From an uncultured Chloroflexia bacterium (GTDB taxonomy: Bacteria; Chloroflexota; Anaerolineae; JAAYZQ01), in assembly GCA_963700285.1 (NCBI GenBank), contig CAVOXA010000010.1:1184001-1248000 (forward strand): 64,000 nucleotides of DNA, written 5' to 3'. The position numbers and the translations under genes are program-made. Under the pieces are notes generated by a model that did not search any database, was not told where the DNA came from, and saw only the letters and a list, made by a program, of their open reading frames with translations. Every line of letters begins with the position of its first letter. The first letter of the stretch is position 1. Shown here in pieces: positions 8,829 to 34,981 of this stretch.

Positions 8829-11800
8829 ATGAATATTCTAAAGCGGAGAAAATTCGAGATCCCATCCGAGGTCAGCGGCCGCCCTGTCACCAATCGTGGC
8901 GTGCACCTGCAGCCCTTTGGATTTCACGGATTCTGGCTTGATCGAGAGAACGAGGACCACTATTGGACTGATCTCTTGAAAGGGATGGGCATGTCATGGG
9001 TGGTGATGCTCACTGAGGGTGACAGCGTCTTGGAAGAGCGCGGTGGGACCACCCCTCTCAATGCCCTGTTGGACGCAGGCGTCATCCCCATTATCCGTGA
9101 CAAACAAAAGCTACCTCGTCCCTTCTCCAATATAGATGCGGTTAAACGTACTGTTCCGGTCTACAGGCAGTATGGATTGCGCCCGTTCTGGCAACTCTAT
9201 AATGAGCCCTTTGATCCTAGGGAGTGGAGAAATGGGGAGGTCCCACCCTACGACGAAGCCTGGGCGATCATTGCTTCCCGGTGGTCTCAGGGGGCGAGGC
9301 AGGTCGCGGATGCGGGCGCCTATGTCGGCTTTCCCGATGGGCCTGGCTACGATGAGAACCCGTACGAGAAGCTGCGTCCAGCCGGGGGACTGGACGTTTT
9401 TGATGAGGGTATGGCTTTTTATGCGCCCCACACCTACGGCAAGGGCCGGCCCCTGTGGTATCCTTATGATGCGGTTACCCGCCACGCTGCCTTGCTAACC
9501 GATGAGGCATACCTCCGCTTGCTGGATGACTTTGCCGATGAGCCAAATTGGTACGACGCGCCCCTGGAATTCCTCAACGCCCAACGTCGGGGGTGGGCCA
9601 ATCCGGACCGGACAGCCCTCGATGATGATACCTGTTGGCGCGGCTGGGAAAAGATTGTAGCCTGGTCCATCGAGTCCCTGGGTTATGTCCCTCCCCTGGC
9701 CATGACAGAAGGGGGATGGACACCCCGTGACCGGGCAGGGTCCAATCCTGTGGACGCACGCTGGCCCTACTCCACGCCCAAGATGGTGGCCAAAAAGACG
9801 CTGCATATGTATGATACGCCATCGCCTTTTTTCGCCATTTGTCCCTGGCTGGTGGCCAGCGAGGATATGGGCGGTGCTGGCTGGTACGACGATGCCTGGC
9901 ACGGTGGGGCGTTCAGCCAGACCTACGGGCGCAAAAAACCGGTCATCCTCACCCTGGAGCAAGTCCCGCCCAAAGAGGTCGAACCTCGGACAGAGCCCCT
10001 GGTCATCGATGTGGATGGCGATACCCGCGATTGGGACTGGGCCGAGACAGCCTACGGGGCCGGCTACCGGCGGGGCGAGACCTCGCTGCGGCTCATCGAG
10101 GTCCACGAGTACGAGGGGCCTACGACTCTGGATGTCATTGTGGTAGACGTTGATGGTCTGCCCATCGAGGGAGTCGAGTTCTATTACCACTATCCCGGCG
10201 CCTCGTCCATTGGCAGCGGCGAATGGTATGACCGGGGCGTGGCGGCTACCTCCGACCAGGCCGGCCGCATTCACTTTGCAGCATCCGAGAATGGCGGGGA
10301 GTGTGTGCCCGGCACCTGTCAGGGCGCCATCTGGCCGGCAGGGAAGGGGGATGTCCTGGACCATCTGGGCTTCCTGGCCGGCACGCAGAACCGTCACCTC
10401 AATGGTGTGTGGCAGTGGCTGGAGGATGGACCTGAACCCGAACCTGAACCTGAACCCGAACCTGAACCCGAACCTGAACCCGAACCTGAACCTGAACCCG
10501 AACCTGAACCTGAACCCGAACCTGAACCCGAACCTGAACCCGAGCCCGGCCCATACGTCGATCCTCGCATTGAACCCTTCCTCACCCTGGACCTGAGTGG
10601 GGACACCTACAAGTTGGTCGAGGTCCTGTGGTACGATCCCCATGAGTCTGGCGGGAAGCACCTTATCTTCCTCGACGTCGTCGATGAGGATGGGCAGCGG
10701 CTGGCCGGTGAGAAAGTGGTCATATCTTGGCCAGGTGGCCAGGCGCCCGTGACGATTGAGGAGAAACCTGGCGAGCTCTGGGGCGGAAGCTTTGGCATGT
10801 CCGCCACGTTGGGCGCTTACGCTGCCCGTGTCGCTCCAGAAAGTGGTACCTCGGATGCCGTGGCTGGTTTGGGCAGGGGGACGCCTGAGGAGCCGGATGT
10901 CATGCACGCTACCTCTTTTGGCATCACCTTCAAAAAGCTCTCCGAGCCTGAACCGGAGCCGGAGCCGGAGCCAGAGCCTGAACCGGAACCTGAGCCTGAA
11001 CCGGAGCCAGAGCCTGAACCGGAGCCTGAGCCAGAGCCTGAACCTGAACCGGAGCCAGAGCCTGAACCTGAACCGGAGCCTGAACCTGAACCGGAGCCAG
11101 AGCCTGAGCCTGAACCCGAGCCTGGTCCCTATGTCGACCCGCGTATCGAGTCTTTCCTGACGCTGGATCTTGGCGGGGATACGTACAAGTTGGAGGAAGT
11201 CCTGTGGTACGATCCCGACGAGTCGGGCGGTAAGCACCACATCTTTCTCGACGTGGTTAATGGCGAGGGCAATCGTCTGGCCGGGGAAAAGGTGATCGTG
11301 TCGTGGTCAGGTGGCCAGGTTCCCGTGACCATCGAGGAGAAACCTGGCGAGCCCTGGGGCGGCAATTTTGGTATGTTCGCCACGTTGGGCTCCTATGCCG
11401 TTCGCGTTGATCCAGAGACCGGATCGTCGGATGCTGTGAGTGGCCTGGGCTTGGGCACGCCCGAGGAGCCGAATATCAAGCACCATACCTCCTTTGGCAT
11501 CACCTTCAAAAAGCTCTCTGAGCCGGAACCTGAACCTGAGCCGGAACCAGAACCCGAGCCTGAGCCGGAACCAGAACCCGAGCCTGAGCCGGAACCAGAA
11601 CCTGAACCAGAACCTGAACCAGAGCCGGAGCCCGGTCCCGATGTCGACCCGCGTATTGAGCCCTTTCTCACTCTGGATCTCAGCGGGGACACCTACAAGC
11701 TGGTGGAGATTCTGTGGTATGACCCCGCAGAATCAGGGGGGCGACACCATATCTTTTTCGACGTCGTTGACGAGGTAGGGCAGCGGTTGGCCGGGGAAAA

Positions 11801-13895
11801 AGTGATCGTATCCTGGCCAGGCGGCCAGGTCCCCATCATCATCGAGGAAAAGCCCGGTGAGCCGTGGGGGGGCAACTTTGGTATGGCGGCGACGCTGGGT
11901 ACCTACACTGCGCGTGTTGCCCCTGAAAGCGGCTCATCGGATGTTGTCAGTGGGCTGGGCCGGGGGACGCCCGAGGAGCCCAATGTGAACCACGCTACCT
12001 CTTTTGGCATCACCTTCAAAAAGCTCTCCGAGCCAGAACCCGAGCCGGAACCCGAACCGGAACCGGAGCCTGAGCCTGAACCGGAGCCCAATGGCAACAA
12101 CCTTGGCTTCTATGTCGAAGCCACCAACGTCGCCGGCTTGCCGGAGGCCATCCGGGATGTCAAGCCTCCTACCCTGCTGACCCACGCCAACGATCGGGGG
12201 CTGCTGCAGTGGATCCGCCGCGAGCTTTCGCCCGACACCTTTGTCATCGGCCGCCTGCACGTCGACCAGCACGTACAGGATGCGTGGCTGACCAGCGGCG
12301 ACCCCGCGGGCAAAGGGCGCGAGTTCGCGGAAACGATCCTCCGCCTCGATATGGGGCTGGCCCTCGAGCGGGGGGCCAACGGCCGGCTGTTGATCGACGC
12401 CTGGATGAGTCTCAACGAGTGCGTACCTGGGCCTGAATCCAATGCCTACCTGGGGGGCAGCGATGAGGATCGGGCCAAGATCCGGGCCAAAGCCGACGCC
12501 TACGACCGCTTCATGGTCGCCTTCCTGCAGCGCCTCAAGCAGGAGGACGGCGATCTGGATGCCGTGGCCTTTAACTTTGGGGCGGGCAACTTTCAGACGG
12601 CCGCCGGCTATCTGGACTGGTTCCCCCGTACGTTGGCCTCCCATACTTATCTGGGCTTTCACGAATATGGCTGGCGGGCGCTCTCCGCGCATCTGGACCC
12701 CAACACCGCCTCGGCCGCGGGCTTTTACCGGCCCTGCATGGCCGGAATCCGGCAGGCCTACGGCACCCATCAAAAGGCCATCATCACGGAGGCCGGCCTG
12801 GCCCGGTTGTACAAGCATATCGAGTTTCCCCCTGGCGACGTTGGCTGGCTGTACGAGGGCGAGACCATCAGCCAGGACGATTATTGGGCGTCACTGGCCT
12901 GGTACAACAGTATGCTTCTCCGGGACCGCTACGTGTTGGGCTCCTGCCTTTTTAACGTCGGCCACTCGGGCAAGTGGGTGACTTTCCGCCACCTGGGCAA
13001 AGACAACGACGGACAATGGATTACGATCATCGACCGGATCGCCGCCCTTAGCGCGCCGCGTGCCCCGCTCCTGCTGGAGCCGCCCTCGCTGGTGACGTTG
13101 CAGGGCCGTGTCCTCAACCAGGAGGATCGTGATGCCCTGGACAAACAGCAGGTTCCCGGTTCCATGATCCGGCTCATCGGCTCGCCCCATACCTTGGGCG
13201 CCGACCCGCGCGCGGCTGCGTTCGACACTGATGCCGTCAGTTGGACGCGGCGCATCAAAGGCTTCCGGGGCAGCGTCTGGAACTGCTGGCAGAAGTATGT
13301 CGAGCGCGAGGTGGCCGGCATTACCTGGGAGGAGTTCAAGGACGGTGTCGTGAAGCAAAATCCGTCTTTGGGTAACTCTGGAGGCCGGTTCAAGGCCAAG
13401 CGCAGGTACTATCTTCCTGAGAACCGGAAACTGGACGACCCGCAAGGCGAACGACCGGAGATCGAATGGGATCGGCTCCTGACCGGCTTCCGTGGAACTC
13501 GCTGGGATTGCTGGCAAAAATACGTCCGCGGCAAGGTAGTCGGTCTGGACTGGCATGCCTTCAAATCAAAGGTCGTGAGACGGAACCCCCAACTGGCCGG
13601 GGATGGCAACCGTTTTGTTCCCCGAGAACGCTACGTGCTGCCCCGCAATGCCGGCCAGTACGAGTACATGCTCGTGGCCTATGCCAACGCCCGAGGGCGC
13701 TACCGCTTCGAATCGCTATTGCCCGGTCTCTACACTGTCGAGGTTACTTCCCCCGGTTCCCAGTCGCTGCGGCGCCAGATCGAGATCAAGGCTGATACCA
13801 CCCTCGATCTGGAGATTGAGCCGCTGCACCGGCAGCCCCTTCCGAGAGGCCAAGATGAAGGACGAGGTCAAGACAAGGCAGAAACTGATCGCTGA
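8829..13895 (+). CDS. 1688-aa modular protein: two GH-A-like TIM barrels, three ~130-aa repeats, (PE)n linkers and a C-terminal beta-sandwich with two LysM-like inserts
   Basis: YNEP...MTEGGW and LNE...HEYGW...ITEAG resemble clan GH-A acid/base and nucleophile motifs. Three copies of VDPRIE.FLTLDL...GITFKKLS and two copies of W.R...GFRG..W.CWQKYV...NP.L. Function is inferred. Confidence 0.7.
10431..10550 (+). repeat. (Pro-Glu)n coding tract 1
   Basis: Tandem CCT/CCC GAA hexamers. Confidence 0.95.
10944..11125 (+). repeat. (Pro-Glu)n coding tract 2
   Basis: Tandem CCN GAR hexamers. Confidence 0.95.
11520..11636 (+). repeat. (Pro-Glu)n coding tract 3
   Basis: Tandem CCN GAR hexamers. Confidence 0.95.
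12028..12090 (+). repeat. (Pro-Glu)n coding tract 4
   Basis: Tandem CCN GAR hexamers. Confidence 0.95.
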
Positions 13896-14400
13896 ACTGG
13901 CCGCAGCCCGGCAGCAGATTGCCGGGCTGGAGGCCGCAAGATCTGATCTCCAGTCGGTTGATCAGGCGTTGCGTGAAAGCTCGCTACGCTTGCGCGTAGC
14001 GTTGCAAAACTCGAACATCGTCGTCTACAACCAAGACCTGGACCTGCGCCATACCTGGATCTACAATCCCCTCCTGGGCTTCACCCCCGAGGGCATTCTG
14101 GGCAAGACGGACGCGGATCTCCTTCTCCCCAAAGATGCTGCCCCTCTGGAACAGATCAAACTCCATGTCCTGGAAACCGGCGCCGGGATGCGCGAGACGG
14201 TACGTACCATCATCGACGGTGATGCCTCCTTCTACGATCTGACCGTTTGGTTTGATACCTGTGTTCCAGAAAGGGAGCGAGAGCGGGTAAGGTCGGCATT
14301 CGACCAACCCTGAGAACTGCCATCGACGGCTCTGGGCTGTGCGATACGCAGGGCAACATTCTGGATGTCAACGACGCTCTGTGCCAAAAACTGGGGATTC
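13855..14400 (+). pseudogene. Degraded multi-PAS sensor gene fragment
   Basis: [15 protein letters not shown]...ALQNSNIVVYNQDLDLRHTWIYNP...ILGKTDADL (PAS 1). Another frame then gives RTAIDGSGLCDTQGNILDVNDALCQKLG (start of PAS 2), cut off at about 14395. Confidence 0.7.
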
Positions 14401-14765
14401 TTTGGGCAAGACCCGGTTCCCGGTTGAATCTCTTTGCGTTCTTGGCGTCTTTGCGGCGAAAAAAACGCCAGCAAGCAGAACCCACCTTTGACATCCCTTA
14501 TGTTTCGTGGTAAGCTTGTGGACGGAAAGGGGAATTGTCAGGAATCCTCCGAGCGGCGGCTTCCCGCTACTCAAAGGGTCTTTGGACGCAGTCGTCACCC
14601 CCTTCATTGTCGAAAGATCTTCCCCTCTCATACACGAGCACCCCGGCAAAGGGTTGCCGTGGCACACAACAACGAATTTAGAATACAACGAATTGGACTG
14701 CCCGGGAAGTCAATTCGTTCCTTTCTCAATTCGTTGTAGTACCGTGGCACACAACAACAAATTCG
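14393..14765 (+). repeat. Caspase-associated promoter/leader cassette, copy 1
   Basis: Colinear similarity to 20206-20617. Contains TTGACA(14488)-17 nt-TAAGCT(14511), several hairpins and a ~75-bp palindromic unit. Confidence 0.9.
14523..14745 (+). ncRNA. Putative structured 5' leader RNA, family not recognised
   Basis: Hairpins conserved in position with the copy at 20317-20617 despite sequence change; GAAA tetraloop stem. Confidence 0.5.
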
Positions 14766-14798: not shown

Positions 14799-17700
14799 AT
14801 GTCCGATTTCCGGGCCAGCCGGGCCGTCGTCATCGGCATCAACGACTACCAGCATGGCATCCCAAAACTACGTACCGCCGTCAATGACGCCCGGAGGCTG
14901 GCCGAGATCCTGGCGCAGGACTATGGTTATGAAGTCGACCTGCTGGTCGAGGACGTGACCAAGTCCCGGCTCGCGGCGTACTTTGAGGCAGCGCGATCCA
15001 CCGTAGGCAAGGACGACCGCCTGCTGATCTACTTTGCCGGCCACGGCATCGCCCTCGACGGCGACGACGGGCCGGCCGGCTACCTGGTGCCCCAGGACGC
15101 CCGGCCCGAGGATCGCGACACCTTCCTGCCCATGACCGAGCTGCACCGCTGGCTGGAGGCGCTGCCCGCCCGCCACCTGCTGGCCATCCTGGACTGCTGC
15201 TTCGCCGGGGCCTTTCGCTGGGCATCGACGCGGGCCCTGGTGCCGGTCCCGGAGGTGATCCATAAGGAGCGCTACGACCGTTTCATTCGGGATGCGGCCT
15301 GGCAGGTGATCACCTCCGCGGCCTACGACCAGACGGCCTTGGACCAACTGGCCGGGGACGACAAGCGGGGTGTGGCGCAAGAAGGGGGCTTGGCCCATTC
15401 GCCCTTTGCCCGGGCGCTGTTCGAGGCCCTGGCCGGGGCCGGCGACGTGGTGCCCCGGGGAGAGGGCGACGGCGTCATCACCGCCACGGAGTTGTACCTG
15501 TACCTGCGGGATGAGGTCGAGGTCCAGGCCGAGGAGGGGGCCAGCCACGCCCAGACGCCGGGGCTGTGGCCGCTGAACAAGCACGACAAGGGGGAGTATA
15601 TCTTTTTGGTGCCGGGCCACGAGCTGAACCTGCCGCCGGCGCCGGAGCTGACCGGCGACAACAACCCCTATCGCGGCCTGCAGTCCTACGACGAGGAGCA
15701 CTGCCAGCTCTTCTTTGGGCGGGAAGAAGAGATCGAGGATCTGGCCGTGTTGGTGGCGGGGCAGGCCTTCACGGCCGTGCTGGGTGCCTCGGGCACGGGC
15801 AAGTCGAGCCTGGTCAAGGCCGGCCTGCTGCCCCGCTTGGGGGGCTGTGCCGAGGACCGTGAGCCGGCGGAGGGGTTGGAGGGTGCCTGGTTCATTCTAC
15901 CTCCCCTGCGTCCCACGGCTACGCCCCTCCTGGCCCTCCAGCAGGTATTGGGCAAGGTTGCCTCCGCGCCAGATATTGAGGCGTTGCACACGGATCCCAA
16001 TACCCTGGCGGCTCTCGTCGCCTCCTGGCGAAACCGTCACCCTGGAACCTATTTCTTGCTGGTGGTCGACCAGTTGGAGGAGCTGATCACGCTCTGCCGG
16101 GACGACGGCCAGCGGGATCAATTCCTGGCGCTGCTGGCCGCGGCCATGGCACAGCAGCCGGATACCTTTCGCCTGGTTGTTACCCTGCGCACCGACTTTG
16201 AGCTGCAGCTTGCCCAGGACACGGCGCTGGCAGGGCCCTGGGCTCGGGAGGGCGCCCGCTACGTGGTACCGCCCATGGACCACGACGACCTGCGGGCGGT
16301 GATCGAGGGTCCTGCCTCGGTGCGAGTGCTCTACTTTGAGCCCTACGGGCTGGTGGACGATCTGATCAAGGAGGTGATCCAGACGCCTGGCGCGCTGCCC
16401 CTGCTGTCCTTCACCCTGAGCGAGCTCTATATCAAGTACCTGGAGCGCCAGGCTGGAGCCAGGCGGGCCGGCGAGACCGTCGACCGCTCCTTGACCGAAA
16501 CGGATTACCAGGCGTTGGGCGGCGTGCTGGGCTCGCTCCGGAATCGCGCCACCGAGGAGTATGAGGATCTGCCGGACGACGCCCACCGGGAGACGATGCG
16601 GCGGGTGATGCTGCGCATGGTGGCCGTGGAGGGCGGTGAGGTGGCCCGCCGGCGCGTGCCCCGTTCTGAGCTGGTATATCCCGGCGAGGAGGAGAACCAG
16701 CGGGTGGACACGGTCATCCAGCGGCTGGTGGCCGCCCGCCTGCTCGTTGAGGGCAGTGAGGAGGACGGCGCCGCCTACGTGGAGCCGGCTCATGACGCGT
16801 TGGTCCGGGCCTGGGACAAGCTGTTGGCCTGGAAGGCCGGGGCGGAGGAGTACCTGCCCTTGCAGCGGCGGCTGGGCCAGGCGGCGGCCGAGTGGGATCG
16901 GGCCGCGGAGAAGGACCGCAGGGGACTGCTCTGGGACGACGACCCGCGCCTGCCCCAGGTGGAGGACGTCGTCTGGCCGGCGGGCAATGGGCGCCGGGGT
17001 GTCAGGGGCCGGGCCAGATGGCTCAAGCACGTGATCCTGCCCGACGTCGACCACCCGGGCGATACCGCCTGGCTGAACCGGCGGGAGGTGGTCTTTGTCC
17101 AGAAGAGCGTTTCCCGTAGGGCCAGCGTGCTGCGGCGCATCGCCGTGATTACGCTGGCCGTGATGGCCATCCTGGCCATGCTGTCCGTGTTCGCCTTTCG
17201 CCAGCAAGCGATTGCCCAGAGGAACGCCGACGATCTCGCTGTTGCCAACGACAACCTGGAGGTAGAGCGGGACAACGCCCTCCGGCAAAGTCGCATCTCC
17301 CGGGCCAGAGAGCTGGCTGCGCGTGCGCAGCTCTCGCTGGAGGAGTCACCGCCCAGGACGTTGCTGCTGGCTGCTGAGGCCGTGAGCATTACGCAGAGCA
17401 TCGACGGGCTGGCCATGACCGAGCCGGAGCAGGCCCTTTGGGATGCAAACGTCGCCGCCGGAGGCATACCCCTGTACGGCCATGAGGCCGAGGTTGTTGC
17501 CGTTGCGCTGTCCCATGATAATCGCTGGCTGGCCACGGCAAGCTGGGACAACAGTGCGCGTCTGTGGGACATGCGCGATCGGGATGCCGAGTCGGTGGTC
17601 CTGCGCGGCCATGATGACCTGGTCAACGATGTGGCCTTTTCCCATGACGACCGCTGGCTGGCCACGGCCAGCGATGATGGTACTGCTCGCCTTTGGGACA

Positions 17701-19559
17701 TGGCGGATCCAGCGGCTGAGCCCATCGTCCTGCGCGGCCACGAGGATGTGGTCAACGATGTGGCCTTTTCCCATGACGACCGCTGGCTGGCTACGGCCAG
17801 CGACGACGGTACCGCCCGTCTGTGGGACATGGCAGACCCGAGTGCTGAACCCCTTGTCTTGGCCGGCCACGCGGACTGGGTCAACAGCCTGGCTTTCTCG
17901 CCCGACGACCGCTGGCTGGCCACGGCCATCGAAGATGGAACCGCGCGTCTGTGGGATCTGGGGGATCCCGATGCCGAACCGGCCGTGCTCGACAGTTCAA
18001 ACGAATACCTTCTGGACATTGGATTCTCCCCCGATGGCCGCTGGCTCGCGGCCGTAGGCGGAAGCGGGAGCAATGTCGATCTTTGGGACCTGGAAGGGGA
18101 GGAGGCTGTAGCGTTTGCCCTGGAGGGGCACATCGGCGATGCCTATGTTCTGGCCTTCTCAAGCGACAGCCGCTGGCTGGCGACAGCCGGCTCGGCCGGC
18201 GCCGTGCGTCTGTGGGACCTGGAGGATCCAGACGCCGAGTCAATTGTCCTGGCCGTGAGAGATTTGAGCAAAGGGGGCATTGTAGAGGATATTCCGGCGG
18301 TTGCCTTCTCGCCCGACGACAGACAGGTCGCGGCAGGCAGCCAGGATGGCACCGTTCGTCTCTGGGATATGGATGACCCCTTTGCTGACCCGCTGATTCT
18401 GTACGGGCACGAGGGGCGGGTCACCGATCTGGCCTACTCGCACGACGGTGAATGGCTGGTCTCCAGCAGCTACGACGATACTGCGCGCCTGTGGCAGCTA
18501 CAGAACCCTGGGATCGAGCCGCGCGTACTCGACCTGGGTTCCGCTGTCCTGTCGGTGGACTATGCTCCTGACGCGCGCCGGCTCGCCGCCGGCGGCTCGG
18601 ATGGAGCGACACGGCTCTGGGATCCGCAAAGCCTTGGCGTGGAGCCCGTCGTCTTGCCCGGCGACCCAACCGTCGAGGTCATGGTTTTCTCTGCTGATGG
18701 CCGCTTGCTGGCCACAGGCAATCACGACGGTGAAGTGACAGTATGGGAACTGGTGGATCTGGGCAGCGAGCCGCTGGTTCTTGACGCCCACGACGGGAGC
18801 GTTACCGGCATAGATCTTTCAGCCGATGGCCGCTGGCTGGCCACGGGTGGAGAGGACGAGACTGCGTTGCTGTGGGACCTGCAAAACCTCGATGCGGAGC
18901 CGGCTGCCTTCGACACTTTGAGCTTGGAGACGGCCGTGGCTTTTTCGAAGGATTCCCGGTGGCTGGCCATGACCTACGATACCCTGGGTGATGTTCACCT
19001 ATGGGATCTTCAGCGTCTCGATGATGGTCCTACGGTCCTGGAAGGCCACAACGCACTGGTGAAGGACTTGGTCTTCTCTCACGATGGCCAGAGGCTGGCC
19101 ACGGCGAGTTACGACCGTACCACGGAGGTATGGGATCTGCGGGACCTCGAAGCCGAGCCACTCATCCTCAGGGGGCATACGAACTGGGTTCTCGCTGTAG
19201 CTTTTTCCTCCGACGACCACTGGCTGGCGACCGCCGGCCTGGATGGCACGACGCGGCTCTGGGACCTGGATAATCCTGGTGTAGACCCGCTGGTTCTGCG
19301 CGGCCACGCCGATGCGGTCAACGATGTGGCTTTCTCCCCTGACGACCGTTGGCTGGTCACGGCCAGCGAGGATGGTACCGCTCGCCTGTGGACAAGGTCG
19401 ACGGATCTCCTGTTGGAGACGGCCTGCCAGACAGCCGGCCGTAACTTGACCCAAGGGGAGTGGAATCAGTACTTTCCGAATGAGCCCTATCGCAAGACGT
19501 GCCCCGGGCTGCCGGCACATCCCAGCGTGCTGGTTGCTGAGGAGGTCGAGACACCGTAG
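14799..19559 (+). CDS. Caspase-like (C14) protease - nSTAND1-type NTPase - TM - 15 WD40 repeats
   Basis: FAGHG/LDCC dyad; PYRGLQSY...FFGRE; Walker A GASGTGKSS; Walker B LLVVDQLEE; GALPLL; HDALVRAW; TM helix IAVITLAVMAILAMLSVFAF; 15 counted WD40 units. Confidence 0.92.
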   Translation: MSDFRASRAVVIGINDYQHGIPKLRTAVNDARRLAEILAQDYGYEVDLLVEDVTKSRLAAYFEAARSTVGKDDRLLIYFAGHGIALDGDDGPAGYLVPQDARPEDRDTFLPMTELHRWLEALPARHLLAILDCCFAGAFRWASTRALVPVPEVIHKERYDRFIRDAAWQVITSAAYDQTALDQLAGDDKRGVAQEGGLAHSPFARALFEALAGAGDVVPRGEGDGVITATELYLYLRDEVEVQAEEGASHAQTPGLWPLNKHDKGEYIFLVPGHELNLPPAPELTGDNNPYRGLQSYDEEHCQLFFGREEEIEDLAVLVAGQAFTAVLGASGTGKSSLVKAGLLPRLGGCAEDREPAEGLEGAWFILPPLRPTATPLLALQQVLGKVASAPDIEALHTDPNTLAALVASWRNRHPGTYFLLVVDQLEELITLCRDDGQRDQFLALLAAAMAQQPDTFRLVVTLRTDFELQLAQDTALAGPWAREGARYVVPPMDHDDLRAVIEGPASVRVLYFEPYGLVDDLIKEVIQTPGALPLLSFTLSELYIKYLERQAGARRAGETVDRSLTETDYQALGGVLGSLRNRATEEYEDLPDDAHRETMRRVMLRMVAVEGGEVARRRVPRSELVYPGEEENQRVDTVIQRLVAARLLVEGSEEDGAAYVEPAHDALVRAWDKLLAWKAGAEEYLPLQRRLGQAAAEWDRAAEKDRRGLLWDDDPRLPQVEDVVWPAGNGRRGVRGRARWLKHVILPDVDHPGDTAWLNRREVVFVQKSVSRRASVLRRIAVITLAVMAILAMLSVFAFRQQAIAQRNADDLAVANDNLEVERDNALRQSRISRARELAARAQLSLEESPPRTLLLAAEAVSITQSIDGLAMTEPEQALWDANVAAGGIPLYGHEAEVVAVALSHDNRWLATASWDNSARLWDMRDRDAESVVLRGHDDLVNDVAFSHDDRWLATASDDGTARLWDMADPAAEPIVLRGHEDVVNDVAFSHDDRWLATASDDGTARLWDMADPSAEPLVLAGHADWVNSLAFSPDDRWLATAIEDGTARLWDLGDPDAEPAVLDSSNEYLLDIGFSPDGRWLAAVGGSGSNVDLWDLEGEEAVAFALEGHIGDAYVLAFSSDSRWLATAGSAGAVRLWDLEDPDAESIVLAVRDLSKGGIVEDIPAVAFSPDDRQVAAGSQDGTVRLWDMDDPFADPLILYGHEGRVTDLAYSHDGEWLVSSSYDDTARLWQLQNPGIEPRVLDLGSAVLSVDYAPDARRLAAGGSDGATRLWDPQSLGVEPVVLPGDPTVEVMVFSADGRLLATGNHDGEVTVWELVDLGSEPLVLDAHDGSVTGIDLSADGRWLATGGEDETALLWDLQNLDAEPAAFDTLSLETAVAFSKDSRWLAMTYDTLGDVHLWDLQRLDDGPTVLEGHNALVKDLVFSHDGQRLATASYDRTTEVWDLRDLEAEPLILRGHTNWVLAVAFSSDDHWLATAGLDGTTRLWDLDNPGVDPLVLRGHADAVNDVAFSPDDRWLVTASEDGTARLWTRSTDLLLETACQTAGRNLTQGEWNQYFPNEPYRKTCPGLPAHPSVLVAEEVETP

Positions 19560-19708
19560 CGTCCAATTGAACTCCCGAGTAGTCAAAAGTACCTAGGAAA
19601 GTTAGTCATTTCTTCCGATGTGCGGCGGCCTACAACGTGCTACAATTGGAGGAGACGAGGAGGTAGGGGCAAGAGATCGCGTCCTTACCGCCTGTATTCC
19701 CAGGGAAA

Positions 19709-19915
19709 TTGGCCGCGAACCTACGCCAACTCAAGACCACATGGCCCCAGGCCCGCTACCTCGTGCTCTTTGACGACGAGCAGGACCGCCGTCACGTACA
19801 GTCTGCCGGTGCCGACGAGGTCCTGGTTAAGGGCATCCGCGCTGCCACAATCCTGGAAACTATGGAGGATCTTCTGTCTGATGACAGCCCAAGTCCTCCT
19901 AGGGGAAGGAGCTAG
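19709..19915 (+). pseudogene. C-terminal half of a degenerate receiver (REC)-like domain
   Basis: LRQLKTTWPQARYLVL...AGADEVLVKG resembles REC alpha3 to beta5. An in-frame stop lies at 19664 upstream and the N-terminal half is missing. Confidence 0.5.
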
Positions 19916-19916
19916 A

Positions 19917-20156
19917 ATGGAAACCTATCGATTCTATCCACCGCAAGTCCGGCCCGCGCAGGTGCCGTACCACGTGCTGGCTGCCGGGACAGAAAGCTGC
20001 CAGCACGAACTGCTGGACAACGCCTGGTGCGACCGCATCATGGTTCAGGACGGCATTATCTTTATCACCTACTCCTGCCGGCACTGCGGCCGGCAGATCT
20101 GCCAGTCCCTGGACGAAGTGTCGCCGCCTGGGTGGAACGGGCATAGCGCGCACTGA
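19917..20156 (+). CDS. 79-aa putative zinc-ribbon protein
   Basis: AAGGAG RBS; CQH...YSCRHCG motif. Confidence 0.6.
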   Translation: METYRFYPPQVRPAQVPYHVLAAGTESCQHELLDNAWCDRIMVQDGIIFITYSCRHCGRQICQSLDEVSPPGWNGHSAH

Positions 20157-20166
20157 GAAAGGATCT

Positions 20167-20272
20167 CACCGCAAAGGCGCAAAGAACGCAAAGAAGAGCG
20201 AGTTTGGAGGATTCCTGGGGCAAGGCCCACATGTCCTTGATCCCCCTTGGCGTCCTTCGCGCCTTGGCGGTG
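20167..20272. repeat. REP-like imperfect inverted repeat (CGCAAAG.CGC.AAG type)
   Basis: TCACCGCAAAGGCGCAAAGAACGCAAAG ... CTTGGCGTCCTTCGCGCCTTGGCGGTGA. The right arm recurs at 14431-14460. Confidence 0.75.
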
Positions 20273-20617
20273 AATTGGTGCTTGACAGCGCATATGTTTC
20301 GTGGTAAGCTTGTGGGTGGAAAGGGGCTTGTCAGGAACCCACTGAACGTCGAGTTCTCGACGCTCTCAGTGTCATTGGACGCAGCCGTCATCCCCTTCAA
20401 TGTCGAAAGACCTTCCCCTCTCACTCACGAGCACCCTGTCGGATGGTTGCCGTGGGATACAACAACGAATTGAGAATACAACGAATGGACTGCGCGGGAT
20501 GTGGATTCGTTCCTTTCCCGATACGTTGTAGTGCGAGAAGAACAACAACGAATTGAGAATACAACGAATGGACTGTGCGGGAAGACGATTCGTTCCTTTC
20601 CCAATTCGTTGTAGTAC
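20206..20617 (+). repeat. Caspase-associated promoter/leader cassette, copy 2
   Basis: TTGACA(20282)-17 nt-TAAGCT(20305); leader homologous to copy 1; two tandem palindromic units at 20459-20532 and 20542-20615. Confidence 0.9.
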
Positions 20618-20640
20618 CAGCACCATAACAGGAGAACAAC

Positions 20641-22761
20641 ATGAGCGAGGACACAGGGACCGGAGCCAACTTTTATGCCCTGCTCATCGGCATAGACCAC
20701 TACCTCAAGCACACGCTGCCTGGGGGTGGCTACTACCCCAAGCTTGGCGGATGTGTGGCCGACGTCCGGCGGGTCGAGGCCTTTCTAAAGACCAAACTGG
20801 ACCTGCCCGAGGAGAACATCTACAAGCTAACCGCCACCTACGGCACCAGCCCAGAGCCCCCGGAACCAAAGGAGCAGTGGCCCACCTACGAGAACATGGT
20901 CGCTGCCTTCCAGAAGGTGACCGAGGTAGCCGGCGCGGGTGACCAGGTCTACGTCCACTATTCCGGCCACGGCGGCCGGACCAAAACCATCTACCCCCAG
21001 CTCAAGGGCGAGGCGGGCCAGGACGAGTCGCTGGTACCCATGGACATCGGCCGCGAGGGCGCCCGCTACCTGCGCGACCTGGAGCTGGCCCACATCTTCC
21101 AGAGGATGGTCGACAAGGGCATCCTCCTTACCGTAGTTCTGGACAGTTGCCACTCGGGCGGCACCACCCGTGCCCTGGACGTCGTCGTGCGCGGCATCGC
21201 CGGGCTGGATACCACCCCGCGTCCCACCGACAGCCTGGTGGCTTCAGCGGAGGAACTGGCTGACACGTGGCTGGGGAGTACGGCCGGCCAGACCCGCGCC
21301 CTCAAGCCCGGCGGCGGCTGGCTGCCCCAGCCCAAGGGCTACACGCTGCTGGCCGCCTGCCGCTCCCAGGAGTTCGCCCACGAGTACAATGTGGCGCCGG
21401 GCAAGCGGGGCGGAGCGCTCACCTGGTGGACCCTCGAGAGCCTGAAGCAGATCGGCCCCGGCCTCACCTATCGTATGCTCCACAACCAGGTCCTGCCCAA
21501 GATCCATGCCCAGTTCCCCCAACAGACGCCCCAGCTCCAGGGTGTAGAGTCCCGGGCTGTGTTCGGCAGCGAAACTGTGCAGCCGGTGCACTCGGTGAAC
21601 GTCATGGCGGTGGGCGCGGAGGGCGAGCGCGTCCAACTGGCCACCGGCCAGGTCCAGGCGGTGACCAAGGGCTCCCAGTTCGCCGTCTACCCTGGGGGGA
21701 CGGAAGATTTCCGGCAGGTTGAGCAGCGTCTGGCCCTGGTGGAGATCGACGATCTGGGAGCTGCCAGCTCCTGGACCAAGCTCGTGAAGATCTTTGGCCG
21801 GGGCGAAATCGGGCCGGGAGATCAAGCTGTGCTGCTGGATCCCGGCAAGGTCCGCCTTCGCCGCCGGGTGCGGCTGGTGACCCAGGGACAGGAAGAAGTA
21901 CCTCCTTCCATCGACCAGGACGAGGCCCTGGATGCGATCCGCGCTGCACTGGAAAGGGAGGGAAGCGGCTGGGTCAGCCTGGGCATGGAGGGCGAGACCG
22001 TCGACTATCAGGTCGCGGTCAATGCCATGGGCCAGTACGAGATCTGGGACCGGTCCGGGGTGCCCATCCCCAACCTGCGGCCCGCGCTTGACTATCTCGA
22101 CTCAGGTGCCCCCGCGCGCGTCGTCCAGCGCCTGGTGCACCTGACCAAGTTCAACAACCTGCTGCTCCTGGACAACCATGACCCGACCTCGCCCCTGGCC
22201 CGCGCCGTGGAGGTAGAGGTCCTGCAGGCCCAGCCCGACTATGAGCCGGGCGAGCCGCCGGACCCGCAGCCCTTTGACGATCCCGGCAACACGCCCACGG
22301 CATCCACCGGCCAGTGGCTGCTGGCCCGCATCAAGAACCGGTCGTCAGAGACCCTCAACCTTGTAGTCTTTGATCTATCGTCTGACTGGAGCGTGGCCCA
22401 GGTGCACCCCACCTGGACCGACTATGTGAGCCTTGATGCCGGGGCGGAAGAGATCTTTCCCCTGCAGGCCGGGCTGCCCCAGGGATATGAGGCGGGTAGC
22501 GACGTGCTCAAGGTCTTTGCCACGCTGGGACCGGCCAACTTTCGATGGCTGGAGATGCCCGAGCTGGACCAACCACCCCTGCGCAGATCCTCAGTCATGC
22601 GTTCCATTGAGGAGCGCGACCCGCTGGAGGAGATGCTGGCCGCCTTTATCGGGGACAAGCCCCTGCCGCTGACCCGCAGCCTCAACCCGGCCGAGTATCC
22701 CAGCCGCGGCTGGTCCACAGTTCAGATGGAGGTGCACGTAAAAAAAGCGAGCAGGGGCTGA
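20641..22761 (+). CDS. Caspase-like (C14) protease with C-terminal beta-sandwich (DUF4384-like) domain
   Basis: ALLIGIDHY, LGGCVADV, YSGHG, LDSCHSG and LLAAC...E.AHE motifs; AGGAG RBS. Confidence 0.9.
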   Translation: MSEDTGTGANFYALLIGIDHYLKHTLPGGGYYPKLGGCVADVRRVEAFLKTKLDLPEENIYKLTATYGTSPEPPEPKEQWPTYENMVAAFQKVTEVAGAGDQVYVHYSGHGGRTKTIYPQLKGEAGQDESLVPMDIGREGARYLRDLELAHIFQRMVDKGILLTVVLDSCHSGGTTRALDVVVRGIAGLDTTPRPTDSLVASAEELADTWLGSTAGQTRALKPGGGWLPQPKGYTLLAACRSQEFAHEYNVAPGKRGGALTWWTLESLKQIGPGLTYRMLHNQVLPKIHAQFPQQTPQLQGVESRAVFGSETVQPVHSVNVMAVGAEGERVQLATGQVQAVTKGSQFAVYPGGTEDFRQVEQRLALVEIDDLGAASSWTKLVKIFGRGEIGPGDQAVLLDPGKVRLRRRVRLVTQGQEEVPPSIDQDEALDAIRAALEREGSGWVSLGMEGETVDYQVAVNAMGQYEIWDRSGVPIPNLRPALDYLDSGAPARVVQRLVHLTKFNNLLLLDNHDPTSPLARAVEVEVLQAQPDYEPGEPPDPQPFDDPGNTPTASTGQWLLARIKNRSSETLNLVVFDLSSDWSVAQVHPTWTDYVSLDAGAEEIFPLQAGLPQGYEAGSDVLKVFATLGPANFRWLEMPELDQPPLRRSSVMRSIEERDPLEEMLAAFIGDKPLPLTRSLNPAEYPSRGWSTVQMEVHVKKASRG

Positions 22762-22889
22762 CGCCGGCGGATGCGCCGCAGGGAGAAACACCCACTGCGG
22801 TGCCGCAAGAGGGGTTTACACTTGCGGCCGTCGCCGAGCCGGAGCAGTCCCTTTCGGTGAACCAAATAGACACAGCAGGAGGTGAGCCC

Positions 22890-23378
22890 ATGGAACCTGA
22901 TGGACAGAATAGCGAGCGCAAGAGCCTCTGGACGCCTGAGGTGATCATCCAGGCCTTCAAGGAGGCCATCACGGCCCTGCTGGGATTGGCGGTGGTGGGT
23001 TATACCCTCATCCTGGCCGGGAATACCCTGTCCCTGGTGGGGCAGCCCGAAAAGTTATCCGATGCCAAGGACATCCTGATGTTGGTCCTGGGTCTGGCGG
23101 GTGTGGTCGTGGGTTACTACTTTGGTCGTGTGCCGGCCGATGCGCGGGCCAGCCAGGCGCAGCAGCAGGCCAACGATGCCACGGCCCAGAGCGAACAGGT
23201 CCACGCCCAGGCCCAGGCCATCGCCGATGAGGTAGACGAGGTGATGGAGCGGATGGCGAGACCCTCCGTCACAGCACGCGGGGCCGAGTCCTCGGCAACA
23301 GATCTCGCCCTGGCCGAGGACCTGTATCGCATCCGCGATGATCTTCGGTCTCTATCCAAGCTAAGTAGAAGGAGGTAA
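22890..23378 (+). CDS. Two-TM protein with GYYFG motif and C-terminal coiled coil
   Basis: AGGAGG RBS before ATG 22890; two hydrophobic helices, the second ending GVVVGYYFG; Q/A-rich helical tail. Confidence 0.8.
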   Translation: MEPDGQNSERKSLWTPEVIIQAFKEAITALLGLAVVGYTLILAGNTLSLVGQPEKLSDAKDILMLVLGLAGVVVGYYFGRVPADARASQAQQQANDATAQSEQVHAQAQAIADEVDEVMERMARPSVTARGAESSATDLALAEDLYRIRDDLRSLSKLSRRR

Positions 23379-23381
23379 GCT

Positions 23382-24683
23382 GTGAATACAAATGATCTAT
23401 TGACCGCATGGTCCATGATGTCTCTGGAAGAGATCGAAACCCGGCTGGAGTCTGGAATCGATGATGCTGCGGCGGAACAGTTTTTCGGCGCCAAAGAGAT
23501 GGCCGAGATGCAGTCGCTATCCAGAGAGCCTCAGGCGCGAGGGCTGCGCGAGGCTGTGGTGCTCCTGCCAGGAGTGATGGGCTCGCTGCTGAGCAGCATC
23601 CGCGGCGTGACTACCCTGCTGTGGATCAACCCTCTCCTCTTTCTCAGGGGCCAGTCCAGCTACCTCGAACTGAACGATGCCGGTACCCACGACCGTGTCC
23701 CGGCCGTGGATGCCGTGCCCATTGGCCTGGAAAAGATGACCTATACCAAGATCGGCCTGTCCCTGCGCCGCAAGACCGACCTCTTTGAATTCCCCTACGA
23801 CTGGCGCCGGCCCATCGCCTGGAACGCGGCTCTCCTGCACGAGTGCCTGGAGCGCTGGGCAGGCGACAACCCCAACCGGCAGTTCACCCTGGTGGGCCAC
23901 AGCATGGGCGGGCTGGTCTCCCGGGCCTACCTGGCCCGCTATCCCCAGGCCTCCCAGCGGCGGGTCAAGCAGGTCATCATGCACGGCACGCCCCATTTTG
24001 GCGCGGCCGGCGCCGTGGCGAACCTGATCCATGGCAACAGCATGATGTCCCTGGCCGCCAAACTCAACAAAAAGAATGTGACGCGCCAGCTACTGCTGAA
24101 TATGCCCAGCGTCTACGAACTGGTGCCCGCGCCGCGTGACCTGTTCCCCTCTCACCGGCCCTACGCTGCCAATTGGGATCTTTACAACGCGGGCGAATGG
24201 GAACTGGAGGGCCTGCGCCAGGATTACCTGGATGCCGGGGCTGGGTTCCACAGGCTGCTGGCAGAGTCTGACCCTCAAGTCCAGATCACGCAGATTGCCG
24301 GCTGCAACCTGAGTACCATCGTGGACATGCAGCGCAGCTTTGGGCCCGATGGGGAGTCGGTGTACAACTCGCTCGGGAAGGAAGATGGCCCCGATGCCGG
24401 TGATGGCACGGTGCCACTGTGGTCGGCCGTCCTGCCCGGAGCCACCATGTATTACATTGAAGAGGTGCACCGCGACCTGCCCAAGAACAAGCAAATCCTC
24501 CGGGCTACCCTGGACCTGATTCATGGGCAACCGCCTGATCTGGACACCAGCATACCGGGTCGCAGGGCCATCGTGAAGCGCGATGTGGCACCGCCTGAGG
24601 TCGATGCGGAGGGGTTGAAGCAACGCATCGAGACGGGCACCGCCACAGAGAAGGACCTGGAGCAACTCTTCTTCGCCTTCTGA
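23382..24683 (+). CDS. Alpha/beta-hydrolase, LCAT/PGAP1-like lipase or acyltransferase
   Basis: LLPGVMGS oxyanion motif, FPYDWR, GHSMGG nucleophile elbow, GTPHFGA, GDGTVP and a later His. Confidence 0.88.
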   Translation: MNTNDLLTAWSMMSLEEIETRLESGIDDAAAEQFFGAKEMAEMQSLSREPQARGLREAVVLLPGVMGSLLSSIRGVTTLLWINPLLFLRGQSSYLELNDAGTHDRVPAVDAVPIGLEKMTYTKIGLSLRRKTDLFEFPYDWRRPIAWNAALLHECLERWAGDNPNRQFTLVGHSMGGLVSRAYLARYPQASQRRVKQVIMHGTPHFGAAGAVANLIHGNSMMSLAAKLNKKNVTRQLLLNMPSVYELVPAPRDLFPSHRPYAANWDLYNAGEWELEGLRQDYLDAGAGFHRLLAESDPQVQITQIAGCNLSTIVDMQRSFGPDGESVYNSLGKEDGPDAGDGTVPLWSAVLPGATMYYIEEVHRDLPKNKQILRATLDLIHGQPPDLDTSIPGRRAIVKRDVAPPEVDAEGLKQRIETGTATEKDLEQLFFAF

Positions 24684-27587: not shown

Positions 27588-28535
27588 TTGGTCGTTGAGA
27601 CAGAGGTAGGGGCGATAAATAGCAACGGTTTATTGGAACAATTCGAAGGGCATCTCGAAAGCACAGCCCTCGCGCCGGCAACAGTGGTGAATTATATGGC
27701 TGATCTCAGGTCCTTCTTGCAATGGAGTCAGACTGCAAGAGGGGCCGGTGTGCTGGTCAATCCGACGCCTGATGGACCCTTTGAGCTAGATGCATCGGAT
27801 ATCCAATCCTATTGTTGCTATCTGCAGCATACAAAGGATCACGTACCAGCTACTGTCAACCGGCGGCTGCAGGCGCTTCGCAAGTTTTACGACTTTGCCA
27901 TTGACCAGGGATGGACCCCCGCCAACCCGGCGAGCGATGTCCGGTTGTTGAGCGAAGTTGTATCTGACCGCAGTCGTGGTTTGACCCCGGACGATGTTAC
28001 CCGTCTGTTGGCCGTTGTGCGGCAGAGCCACGCTCGGCGGGCGGACAGGGATTGGGCGATCTTTCAGGTGCTGTTACATGCCGGATTAAAGCTGGGTGAA
28101 TTGACCCAGTTGCGAATGGCAGACCTGGATCTGGATGCTGTGCCACCCTACCTTTGTGTGGGCAGCAATGCAAGCCAATCCGGCCGCACCATCCCGCTCG
28201 AGGGCGAGGTATGCGATGCCCTGCGAGCCTATTTGCCCAAAAGGCAAGCTGCCCCCGGTGTAGCCTATGTCTTTGTGAATCGGGACGGGAATCCGCTTTC
28301 AACGCGTACCGTGCAACGGCTGCTCCATCAATACGCGCGGGCTGCGGCTTTGGACAACCTCACGACCCAATCTCTGCGCTATGTGTACGCCACAAGGGTC
28401 TATGAAAGAAGCGGTGACCTGAAAACGGTGGCCCTGCTGTTGGGTCATCGTCATCTGGCAACCACGATCCGGTACCTACGCTCCAGCGGAGCGCAACAGA
28501 AGCAATTCGATACGGACAATCTAGACGGAACGTAA
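27588..28535 (+). CDS. XerC/D-like tyrosine recombinase homologue with degenerate active site
   Basis: SAM-like N-domain (TVVNYMADL, ATVNRRLQALRKFY) and LLGH...TT.RY are present, but GLKLGEL and TTQSLRY replace GxRxSEL and PHxLRH. Confidence 0.85.
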   Translation: MVVETEVGAINSNGLLEQFEGHLESTALAPATVVNYMADLRSFLQWSQTARGAGVLVNPTPDGPFELDASDIQSYCCYLQHTKDHVPATVNRRLQALRKFYDFAIDQGWTPANPASDVRLLSEVVSDRSRGLTPDDVTRLLAVVRQSHARRADRDWAIFQVLLHAGLKLGELTQLRMADLDLDAVPPYLCVGSNASQSGRTIPLEGEVCDALRAYLPKRQAAPGVAYVFVNRDGNPLSTRTVQRLLHQYARAAALDNLTTQSLRYVYATRVYERSGDLKTVALLLGHRHLATTIRYLRSSGAQQKQFDTDNLDGT

Positions 28536-28537
28536 CC

Positions 28538-34981
<6,444 letters not shown>

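Follow-up and report, generated by a model that had tools for sequence, protein, structure and literature searches.

Proteins that join a C14 caspase to an nSTAND1 NTPase, a transmembrane (TM) helix and a beta-propeller are already catalogued in bacteria. The domain string CASPASE+nSTAND1+TM+BetaPropeller occurs 72 times, about two per entry, in the consulted part of the Kaur 2021 supplement (PMC8195603, Figure 2 source data 1), a Chloroflexi entry included; bacterial caspase–STAND–WD40 orthologues of Apaf-1 have been noted (PMC13581612), and periplasm-facing STAND sensors have been predicted elsewhere (PMC10907252). Modules of a caspase and an alpha/beta-hydrolase are likewise published (Kaur 2020, PMC7159879), and LcCaspase cuts the LcHydrolase zymogen at R|G and kills (Evans et al., 10.1101/2025.11.14.688446). 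SAVED-CHAT and PCaspase form a two-step protease cascade (Steens et al., 10.1101/2023.06.23.546230), while loss of an inhibitory piece frees bacterial gasdermin (10.1101/2021.06.07.447441) as well as EACC1 and Pepco, protease-released pores being described by Johnson et al. and Evans et al. Here we compare with these systems a four-gene locus in a 64,000-nt stretch (G000:C10:1184001–1248000; hereafter, the window) of the 7.05-Mb genome G000 of an uncultured Chloroflexia bacterium. The locus encodes a caspase–STAND–TM protein with 15 WD40 repeats (caspase 1), a second intact caspase (caspase 2), a small protein with two hydrophobic stretches and a GYYFG motif (the 2TM protein) and an LCAT/PGAP1-like lipase, contents that an original prediction made from the DNA letters had claimed and that our analysis confirmed throughout.

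We propose, at a probability of roughly 0.45, that this locus encodes an arginine-specific protease cascade for regulated cell death. Caspase 1 would sense an outside ligand via its WD40 propeller and oligomerise through STAND; it would then cut the caspase 2 zymogen at conserved Arg sites, and we give activation of caspase 2 by caspase 1 somewhat better than an even chance. Caspase 2 would in turn cut the 2TM protein at R130|G131, removing its C-terminal helix, and may also cut the lipase propeptide at R53|G54; the cleaved effectors would damage the membrane, leading to regulated cell death. A phage or a predator acting at the envelope may be the trigger. We infer every cleavage and killing step, as well as the order caspase 1, caspase 2, effectors. 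The new part is the unnamed 2TM family with its predicted cut site, together with arrays in which caspase 1 and caspase 2 meet; the sensor architecture is already catalogued.

Caspase 1, its sensor arrays and caspase 2

Caspase 1 (14799–19559, + strand; 1586 aa) has the order C14–nSTAND1–TM–15×WD40. It carries a His82/Cys134 dyad, Walker A and Walker B motifs at residues 329 and 422, an nSTAND1 match (PF20703, residues 290–705) scoring 341 bits against a cut-off of 27.1, and a single hydrophobic helix (781–799) followed by exactly 15 WD40 repeats. The C14 assignment draws on NF047832 (E 6.5e-24, below cut-off), the PADLOC 'caspase' model (E 1.8e-13) and the motifs, the domain not being among the Pfam matches listed (25 of 54 families); against the EACC1-type caspase family the protein scored 84.6 bits for a cut-off of 140, and 89.6 in the genome search. 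Since there is one TM helix and no signal peptide, the predicted propeller very probably faces the outside of the cell, and the extracytoplasmic WD40 sensing part of the original prediction gains support from a single TM helix after STAND in all 13 of the array proteins checked.

Caspase 2 (20641–22761, + strand; 706 aa) matches PF00656 (E 7.5e-17), with His110/Cys170 in place, and the PADLOC caspase model over residues 10–654 (E 4e-38). Its predicted structure (mean predicted local distance difference test score, pLDDT, 85) is that of a stand-alone, type-II-metacaspase-like zymogen with two to three C-terminal domains; the best structural match is Arabidopsis metacaspase 9 (E 6e-16), and searches of the PDB returned only metacaspases and GSU0716. 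In TbMCA2 the S1 residues are Asp95 and Asp211 (PMC4357240; also PMC6426788). The S1-type residues D41 and D168 of caspase 2, invariant in 107/107 aligned homologues, are spaced like this pair, to which D30 and D132 of caspase 1, read from its sequence, also correspond; both equivalences are by spacing, with no superposition. Caspase 1 further has Thr-Arg just past its catalytic Cys, as do 9/10 orthologues among those listed. Among the same 107 homologues of caspase 2, R184 and R219 are conserved in all, R177 in 102, R679 in 98 and R654 in 78, and R219, R654 and R679 sit in loops with pLDDT below 50. From these residues we hold with high confidence that both enzymes are Arg-specific; the Arg-Gly motifs in caspase 2, the 2TM linker and the lipase are predicted cutting sites, which fits Arg-type caspases.

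The caspase 2 family is large (1,723 homologues at E ≤ 1e-20 among 7,993 scored), and no relative was seen in the viral contigs searched. A search of the phylum gave a match in 5 of 401 genomes, probably an undercount because only two candidates per genome were scored. G000 itself has further C14 genes (C22:65490–68018, C14:615572–616213, C1:1209889–1210512 and C7:117889–118326), one with three caspase-like stretches in 1205 aa; these could act on the same substrates in trans.

Residues 1–720 of caspase 1 found matches in 9 of 301 genomes of the class at E ≤ 1e-60, G000 included, with three candidates scored per genome; six of the eight other genomes come from one family and hence are not independent. 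In the stretches fetched from these eight, the orthologues mostly lie in tandem arrays of caspase- or CHAT–nSTAND1–TM–propeller genes, examples being G007:C16:1–44000, G054:C24:1–22300, G219:C20:102000–132000 and G194:C17:2300–21800 (homologues outside G000 are labelled by genome, G, or by fetched locus, L). Close orthologues are 63–69% identical in caspase and STAND, and mostly 24–41% in the propeller. Caspase-2-family genes lie inside the arrays in seven of the eight genomes, none being seen in G097: close caspase 2 orthologues in G054, G007, G219 and G200, and a more distant caspase type of ~700 aa in G194, G054, G007, G244, G259 and G219. In G333, from another class, a caspase 1 orthologue stands back to back with a gene bearing the middle and C-terminal domains of caspase 2. 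Arrays of 2–7 genes, with constant N-terminal halves, variable sensors and the two ~700-aa caspase types interleaved, were observed across L195–L208. Two modules can be told apart from sequence: module A, the caspase 1 sensor arrays with their ~700-aa caspases, and module B, the 2TM protein with clan CD proteases. Common to both, caspase 2 appears as the hub joining sensor array to effectors, and the four-gene set as one lineage's combination.

The 2TM family and its predicted cut site

The 2TM gene (22890–23378, + strand; 162 aa) ends with a stop codon at 23378 and likely starts at ATG 22890, since most homologues begin there, GTG 22800 being the alternative. The protein has two hydrophobic stretches, the second ending at GYYFG; its model is all-helical (pLDDT 72), with a TM hairpin, a long helix (81–123), a low-confidence loop and a short helix (135–161). 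Conservation peaks at the end of TM2 and in the motif GYYFGRVPAD. One search returned 193 homologues at E ≤ 0.001 and another 764 representative clusters at 50% identity, and no curated match to the family was found in Pfam, NCBIfam or PADLOC. Across 96 members, Pfam gave only sub-threshold T2SSM and pilin matches, an identity that we dismissed as TM-plus-helix noise. PF28006, present in the precomputed annotations of 4/120 homologues, may be a newer name for part of the family; the ESM Atlas returned unnamed clusters only. The label 'holin-like', attached to this protein in the original prediction, finds little echo in PHROGs, where holin matches were weak (E 0.005–0.04, in 2/5 members) and accompanied by a weak spanin match, and the viral contigs searched held no 2TM relative. 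The 2TM profile matched in 7/301 genomes of the class.

The case for proteolysis comes from the linker between the long and short helices. In a set of 53 non-redundant homologues (120 hits reduced at 70% identity), Arg occupies column 130 in 40 and the next residue is Gly or Ser, again in 40, the loop being otherwise variable. An RG pair occurs in 27/53 linkers, against a shuffle mean of 10.1 (standard deviation 2.7, maximum 19), and in 64 of a more distant set of 119 (the members of 144 with the motif and a long enough tail), against 27.5 (standard deviation 4.3, maximum 42). These counts make it probable that a clan CD protease cuts the linker.

Gene neighbourhoods point the same way. We compared 19 genome loci and the best 80 of 104 metagenome loci, 99 loci that collapse to 74 clusters at 90%. 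In 33 of the 74, a same-strand neighbour no more than 1.5 kb off, or a fused domain, is a C14, CHAT or C11 protease or a partner domain of one; the figure is 16 of the 31 where both flanks reach at least 1 kb, compared with a background of about 2% estimated generously from G000. The neighbour query set was partly drawn from the same loci after Pfam confirmation, and related loci do not count as independent. In five clusters (L063, Syntrophaceae; L066, Trueperaceae; L090; L103; L109/L110) the gene just before the 2TM gene is caspase 2. The Syntrophaceae locus (L063:5124–13732) reads DNase II, patatin, caspase 2, 2TM, TPR-CHAT, and the Trueperaceae locus, from another phylum, reads LCAT lipase, caspase-TPR, caspase 2, 2TM, WD40 NTPase, CHAT-nSTAND1-WD40. 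Near some of the remaining 2TM loci, other proteases were seen: S8 (L089, L161), papain (L117) and trypsin (L150). At L068–L070 and L113 the 2TM gene faces a gene for an Avs1a-like metallo-beta-lactamase-fold hydrolase (NF041809, E 7.5e-57, below cut-off), and no protease lies close by.

Whether the cleaved protein, minus its C-terminal helix, permeabilises the membrane is to our judgement finely balanced. An alternative, which we consider unlikely, makes the 2TM protein a membrane anchor, a decoy substrate or an inhibitor resembling PCi, killing then being due to broad proteolysis by caspase 2 or to the lipase and not to a pore. PCaspase does cleave many proteins and its own inhibitor PCi, according to the published description, and the 2TM domain is fused to the C-terminus of a clostripain (L075) and of a CHAT protease (L079), as would suit an anchor freed by self-cleavage. 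The same alternative draws on the lack of a recognised pore-like fold in the 2TM model and on an extra, adaptor-size N-terminal helical domain in 59–63 of about 142 distant members. The conservation peak at the end of TM2 and GYYFGRVPAD, however, exceeds what a plain anchor needs. Complex prediction for caspase 2 with the 2TM protein scored 0.00 in both runs, with controls not folded, and was used neither way.

The extra domain just mentioned, ~90 aa followed by a long linker and carried by ~40% of distant members, includes L073, L074, L076, L077, L102, L116, L118 and P0361–P0504; several of these genes adjoin CHAT genes, three of TCAD7-CHAT type. It was considered as a homotypic adaptor and rejected, since the loci searched showed it on 2TM fusions alone and G000 lacks it.

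The lipase, close relatives and the weight of the proposed cascade

The lipase gene (23382–24683, + strand; 433 aa), encoding an LCAT/PLA2G15-like alpha/beta-hydrolase, starts at the fourth base past the 2TM stop. Pfam assigns LCAT (E 6e-12) and PGAP1 (E 4e-8), and Ser174/Asp341/His363 are invariant in 16/16 aligned sequences. An N-terminal extension of ~55 aa ends in R53-G54, and there is a short C-terminal extension; the N-terminal linker has RG in 33/49 sequences, against a shuffle mean of 8.4 (maximum 16). The lipase is linked to a caspase here, in metagenome contig L090 and, as a remnant, in the same-genus genome G263, and matches to it were seen in 47/301 genomes of the class. At 24 close and 6 distant orthologue loci, window-derived queries, run over stretches some of which were short, gave no C14, nSTAND1 or 2TM match; the search for CHAT near lipases covered three loci in the family and seven upstream genes, and no CHAT domain was found in the STAND-TPR-like genes upstream of some orthologues. 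All five lipase-bearing genomes examined have CHAT genes, and four of them have no PF00656 match, so cleavage in trans is conceivable. Three 2TM/lipase pairs of close homologues come from common sources, which suggests that these too are adjacent; in G259, 31 kb separate the lipase orthologue from that genome's caspase 1. Within the set the lipase is the weakest member and a doubtful one, and that it serves as a substrate in this genome is put forward only tentatively, at somewhat less than even odds. Six orthologues (L046, L048, L050–L053) each follow immediately on a STAND-like P-loop/TPR gene, an identification that Pfam confirmed in one case; this is a possible second sensor–lipase pairing, in which no protease was detected.

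The sister genome G263 is syntenic from the 1688-aa gene upstream of caspase 1 to cydA. It has a single promoter-like copy, the first caspase 2 codons joined to the 3' half of the 2TM gene, and an intact lipase; a deletion of ~2.5 kb from the caspase 2 start to the middle of the 2TM gene, a single event at a 5-nt shared word (L031:13733, G263:C9), removed the protease and the TM hairpin together. From this remnant arrangement, caspase 2–2TM–lipase is ancestral to G000 and G263. Joint loss of caspase 2 and hairpin fits removal of a toxic partner, but it fits the anchor or inhibitor alternative equally. The junction lies just behind a transposase remnant resembling that of an insertion sequence (IS), its family read by eye.

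The original prediction described four co-oriented genes, and open reading frames (ORFs) for all four are indeed present on the + strand at the coordinates given above. The two caspases are, however, separated by 1,081 nt containing a response-regulator-receiver-like stub (19709–19915, + strand; receiver reading by eye, with no Pfam match), a Cys-rich, Zn-ribbon-like ORF of 79 aa (19917–20156, + strand; no Pfam or PHROG match; kept in G263, E 6e-47) and the second copy of a promoter-like element. The stub, to which a frameshifted gene at the syntenic place in G263 is similar, probably does not belong to the system. Because a promoter-like copy precedes each caspase and small ORFs lie between, caspase 1 probably forms one transcription unit and caspase 2–2TM–lipase a second, co-regulated one. 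On present sequence evidence all four genes are real and their catalytic residues intact, yet they appear to be neither one operon nor one travelling unit.

Copy 1 of the element (14488–14763, + strand) precedes caspase 1, and copy 2, with two tandem 74-bp palindromes (20282–20615, + strand), precedes caspase 2. The copies, of ~280 nt, are 81% identical over 276 nt, and the genome holds just two instances of the first ~180 nt. An exact sigma-70 −35 box, a 17-nt spacer, a weak extended −10 box and a leader of ~150 nt were read by eye in an alignment of three copies (two from the window, one from G263), the scanner output not listing them. The third copy, at the syntenic place in G263 (L031:13352–13529), is 88% identical to copy 1; the element was not found in four other genomes examined. 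The duplicated promoter and leader (14488–14665, 20282–20458 and L031:13352–13529) are able to fold into a long stem. The leader could be a regulatory 5' leader; as an RNA family the element has no Rfam match, and RNAalifold on the three copies, sequences too few to judge, gave 3/55 pairs with a two-sided change. The last ~74 nt are a dispersed intergenic palindrome, resembling repetitive extragenic palindromes and with internal direct repeats, copied in the window at 14666–14743, 20459–20532 and 20542–20615 and elsewhere in G000 at C1:198045, C1:1028737, C14:606699, C5:275876, C10:1820275 and C22:259870. As these six other sites adjoin unrelated genes, a system-specific operator was ruled out. 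A terminator scan gave nothing beyond shuffles (2 against 5.8).

Short-read contigs with 0–2 mismatches cover pieces of the four-gene region, so at those pieces the sequence is no assembly artefact. Two RNA libraries, each from a different study, yielded short contigs that match pieces of caspase 2, the 2TM gene and the lipase without mismatch; since contigs give no evidence of transcription or of gene ranking, these were not counted as expression, and every share among the sequencing runs compared with the region was 0.14 or less.

A number of observations weigh against the proposed cascade. No other genome examined was found to carry the four-gene set, and the PADLOC search suggested by the original prediction matched no known defence system beyond one caspase model. 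The stretches around the caspase 1 orthologues in eight genomes gave no 2TM or lipase match; genome-wide, G244 alone among the eight carries a 2TM gene, which is 2.3 Mb distant and lies 2.2 kb past a CHAT gene. G263 lacks caspase 1 and has instead, between the same flanks, an IS-like element and ~25 kb of other genes; this absence, with the two unrelated small ORFs, fits a recent insertion of caspase 1. For the 2TM protein, no structural match to any known pore was returned by Foldseek at E ≤ 0.001, hydrophobicity is moderate (Kyte-Doolittle 1.75–1.87), 15 of the 31 two-flank loci lack a clan CD neighbour, and two of five genomes with protease-less 2TM loci have no PF00656 match (incomplete metagenome-assembled genomes, CHAT not searched). 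For the lipase, RG is not enriched in the C-terminal linker (5/49 against 5.4), Arg stands at the predicted site in only 2/16 of a distant set, and the lipase of G692, which has no caspase neighbour, carries RG as well. None of the 24 other loci of close orthologues in the class, nor of the three in the family (two at contig starts), showed a C14 or 2TM neighbour, and G263 keeps its lipase at 91% without a PF00656 match in the genome, although CHAT proteases are present there.

Much of this would also suit independent tenants of a variable site, namely a self-contained caspase 1 behind a copied promoter, a caspase 2 and 2TM module, and a resident lipase of lipid metabolism. The turnover in G263, the small ORFs parting the caspases, and lipase orthologues that keep to ordinary neighbourhoods and persist in genomes with no PF00656 match all favour such a history. 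We nevertheless regard it as unlikely, since caspase-2-family neighbours accompany caspase 1 orthologues in 7/8 other genomes and in G333, all four functional classes recur in the Trueperaceae locus of another phylum, and contig L090 keeps caspase 2–2TM–lipase at 81% DNA identity across the three genes. For the proposed cascade, then, what stands of the predicted death system is a protease-centred locus with caspase pairing in 7/8 genomes and Arg-Gly motifs, and what finds no support is a fixed four-gene system. The synteny that the original prediction proposed to look for is found in part: caspase 2 and 2TM pair across phyla, whereas the lipase mostly has no caspase beside it and the caspase 1 arrays carry neither 2TM gene nor lipase.

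Turning to the flanking genes, the 1688-aa protein (8829–13895, + strand) is glycan-hydrolase-like, with GH5-like and LysM-like leads, PE-rich linkers and a C-terminal CarboxypepD_reg domain. Homologous pieces occur just upstream of caspase arrays in four of eight genomes (G194, G259, G219, G200) and weakly in G097; in those places they are fusions with GH5, SH3_3 or N-acetylmuramidase domains. That homologues accompany the same arrays speaks against independent tenancy, and by sequence association the protein is probably an accessory of the caspase 1 arrays. It also raises the alternative of envelope remodelling or programmed lysis unrelated to phage defence, in which a holin-like 2TM channel would free signal-less glycan hydrolases such as this one. 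The domains encoded upstream of the arrays, the lack of a hydrophobic N-terminal helix in the window's protein and the weak PHROG matches of the 2TM protein agree with it, but the arrays with glycan genes have no 2TM gene, 2TM loci elsewhere did not show glycan genes, no 2TM relative appeared in viral contigs, and the propeller variation within tandem arrays suggests an arms race. We rate this alternative below the two preceding ones. A paralogue of the N-terminal 530 aa of the 1688-aa protein lies at 46482–48548 (61% identity). Upstream of caspase 1, a PAS-fold ORF (13603–14313; PAS_4 match) ends early, and the matching ORF of G263 runs 764 aa; it looks like a truncated sensor kinase at a putative boundary of caspase 1 insertion. 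Downstream, the interval 27588–33524 holds a XerC/D-like integrase and then an rpoC-like region, read by eye, with many frameshifts that are probably long-read indel errors.

Comparison with known systems

Caspase 1 has the exact domain order of the caspase–nSTAND1–TM–propeller proteins of Kaur 2021 (PMC8195603). In rows 1–20 of the 72 there, the partner is EACC1 or none, whereas here a second caspase of ~700 aa and a 2TM gene follow. The string '2TM' has no match in 12 of the 13 supplement files of that paper. Tandem sensor arrays with interspersed stand-alone caspases and glycan-hydrolase genes were not found described in the consulted portion of the literature. The original prediction had regarded the gene set as unnamed, and in that portion no described match for the set was found, although the sensor architecture and the caspase–hydrolase modules are already published.

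The closest parallel for the lipase is LcHydrolase, with which it shares a place beside a caspase, a lipase-like alpha/beta-hydrolase fold and a conserved R-G in the N-terminal linker. Compared by description, LcHydrolase is about 33 kDa with two R|G sites, whereas the lipase here has 433 aa, is LCAT-like and shows one enriched RG site; most of its orthologues have no caspase neighbour. With SAVED-CHAT and PCaspase the locus shares a clan CD protease fused to a sensor, a C14 protease that stands alone and, here as candidates, additional small substrates, but the sensor here is a membrane STAND-WD40 protein, and caspase 2 is likened to PCaspase by description. No SAVED-fused CHAT, CRISPR or CBASS context, cyclase, sigma factor or kinase was found among the locus proteins scanned. 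In fold, caspase 2 resembles the plant type II metacaspases AtMC9 and AtMC4, which have Arg/Lys specificity and for some of which proteolysis is described as important for activation; unlike them, it has about 400 extra C-terminal residues with two more conserved Arg.

The 2TM protein differs from phage holins in having neither a solid holin match nor relatives in viral contigs. Other 2TM effectors are named in a ParA preprint, and in the part of the Evans et al. survey consulted, which lists ten effector families, none is an all-helical 2TM protein. No description of the GYYFG family or of the four-gene set was found in the literature consulted, where the string GYYFG was not searched and the tables of Evans et al. 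may list related loci. Like gasdermin and Pepco, the 2TM protein is a small protein beside a C14 or CHAT protease with a short C-terminal tail, in its case predicted to be cleavable; unlike the beta-rich pores of gasdermin, EACC1 and Pepco, its model is all-helical with a TM hairpin and matches none of them in Pfam, NCBIfam, PADLOC or Foldseek. EACC1, as described, has a single TM and an alpha+beta fold, whereas the 2TM protein, with its two hydrophobic stretches, has no EACC1 match. Among the locus genes no gasdermin match was found in Pfam or PADLOC, and the ORF upstream of caspase 1, where an EACC1 gene might lie, matches PAS_4 only, no dedicated EACC1 profile search of the intergenic DNA having been made.

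Protease–effector modules are a main logic of bacterial immunity, and the 2TM family offers a predicted cleavage site, R130|G131. If confirmed, caspase 1 and caspase 2 would be a bacterial initiator/executioner pair driven by a membrane-spanning STAND. No experiment on a receptor of the caspase 1 type was found in the literature consulted, and such receptors touch on the question of whether extracytoplasmic signals can set off bacterial death. The fullest form of this idea, in our estimate a rather improbable one, is that the GYYFG 2TM family is a new class of alpha-helical, protease-gated membrane pore, released by Arg-Gly cleavage and shared by C14, CHAT and clostripain proteases, and that it is here the output of an initiator-to-executioner cascade from an outward-facing, polymorphic WD40 receptor. 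Were that so, the family would be a helical counterpart of gasdermin, EACC1 and Pepco, and the locus a bacterial 'extrinsic' death pathway.

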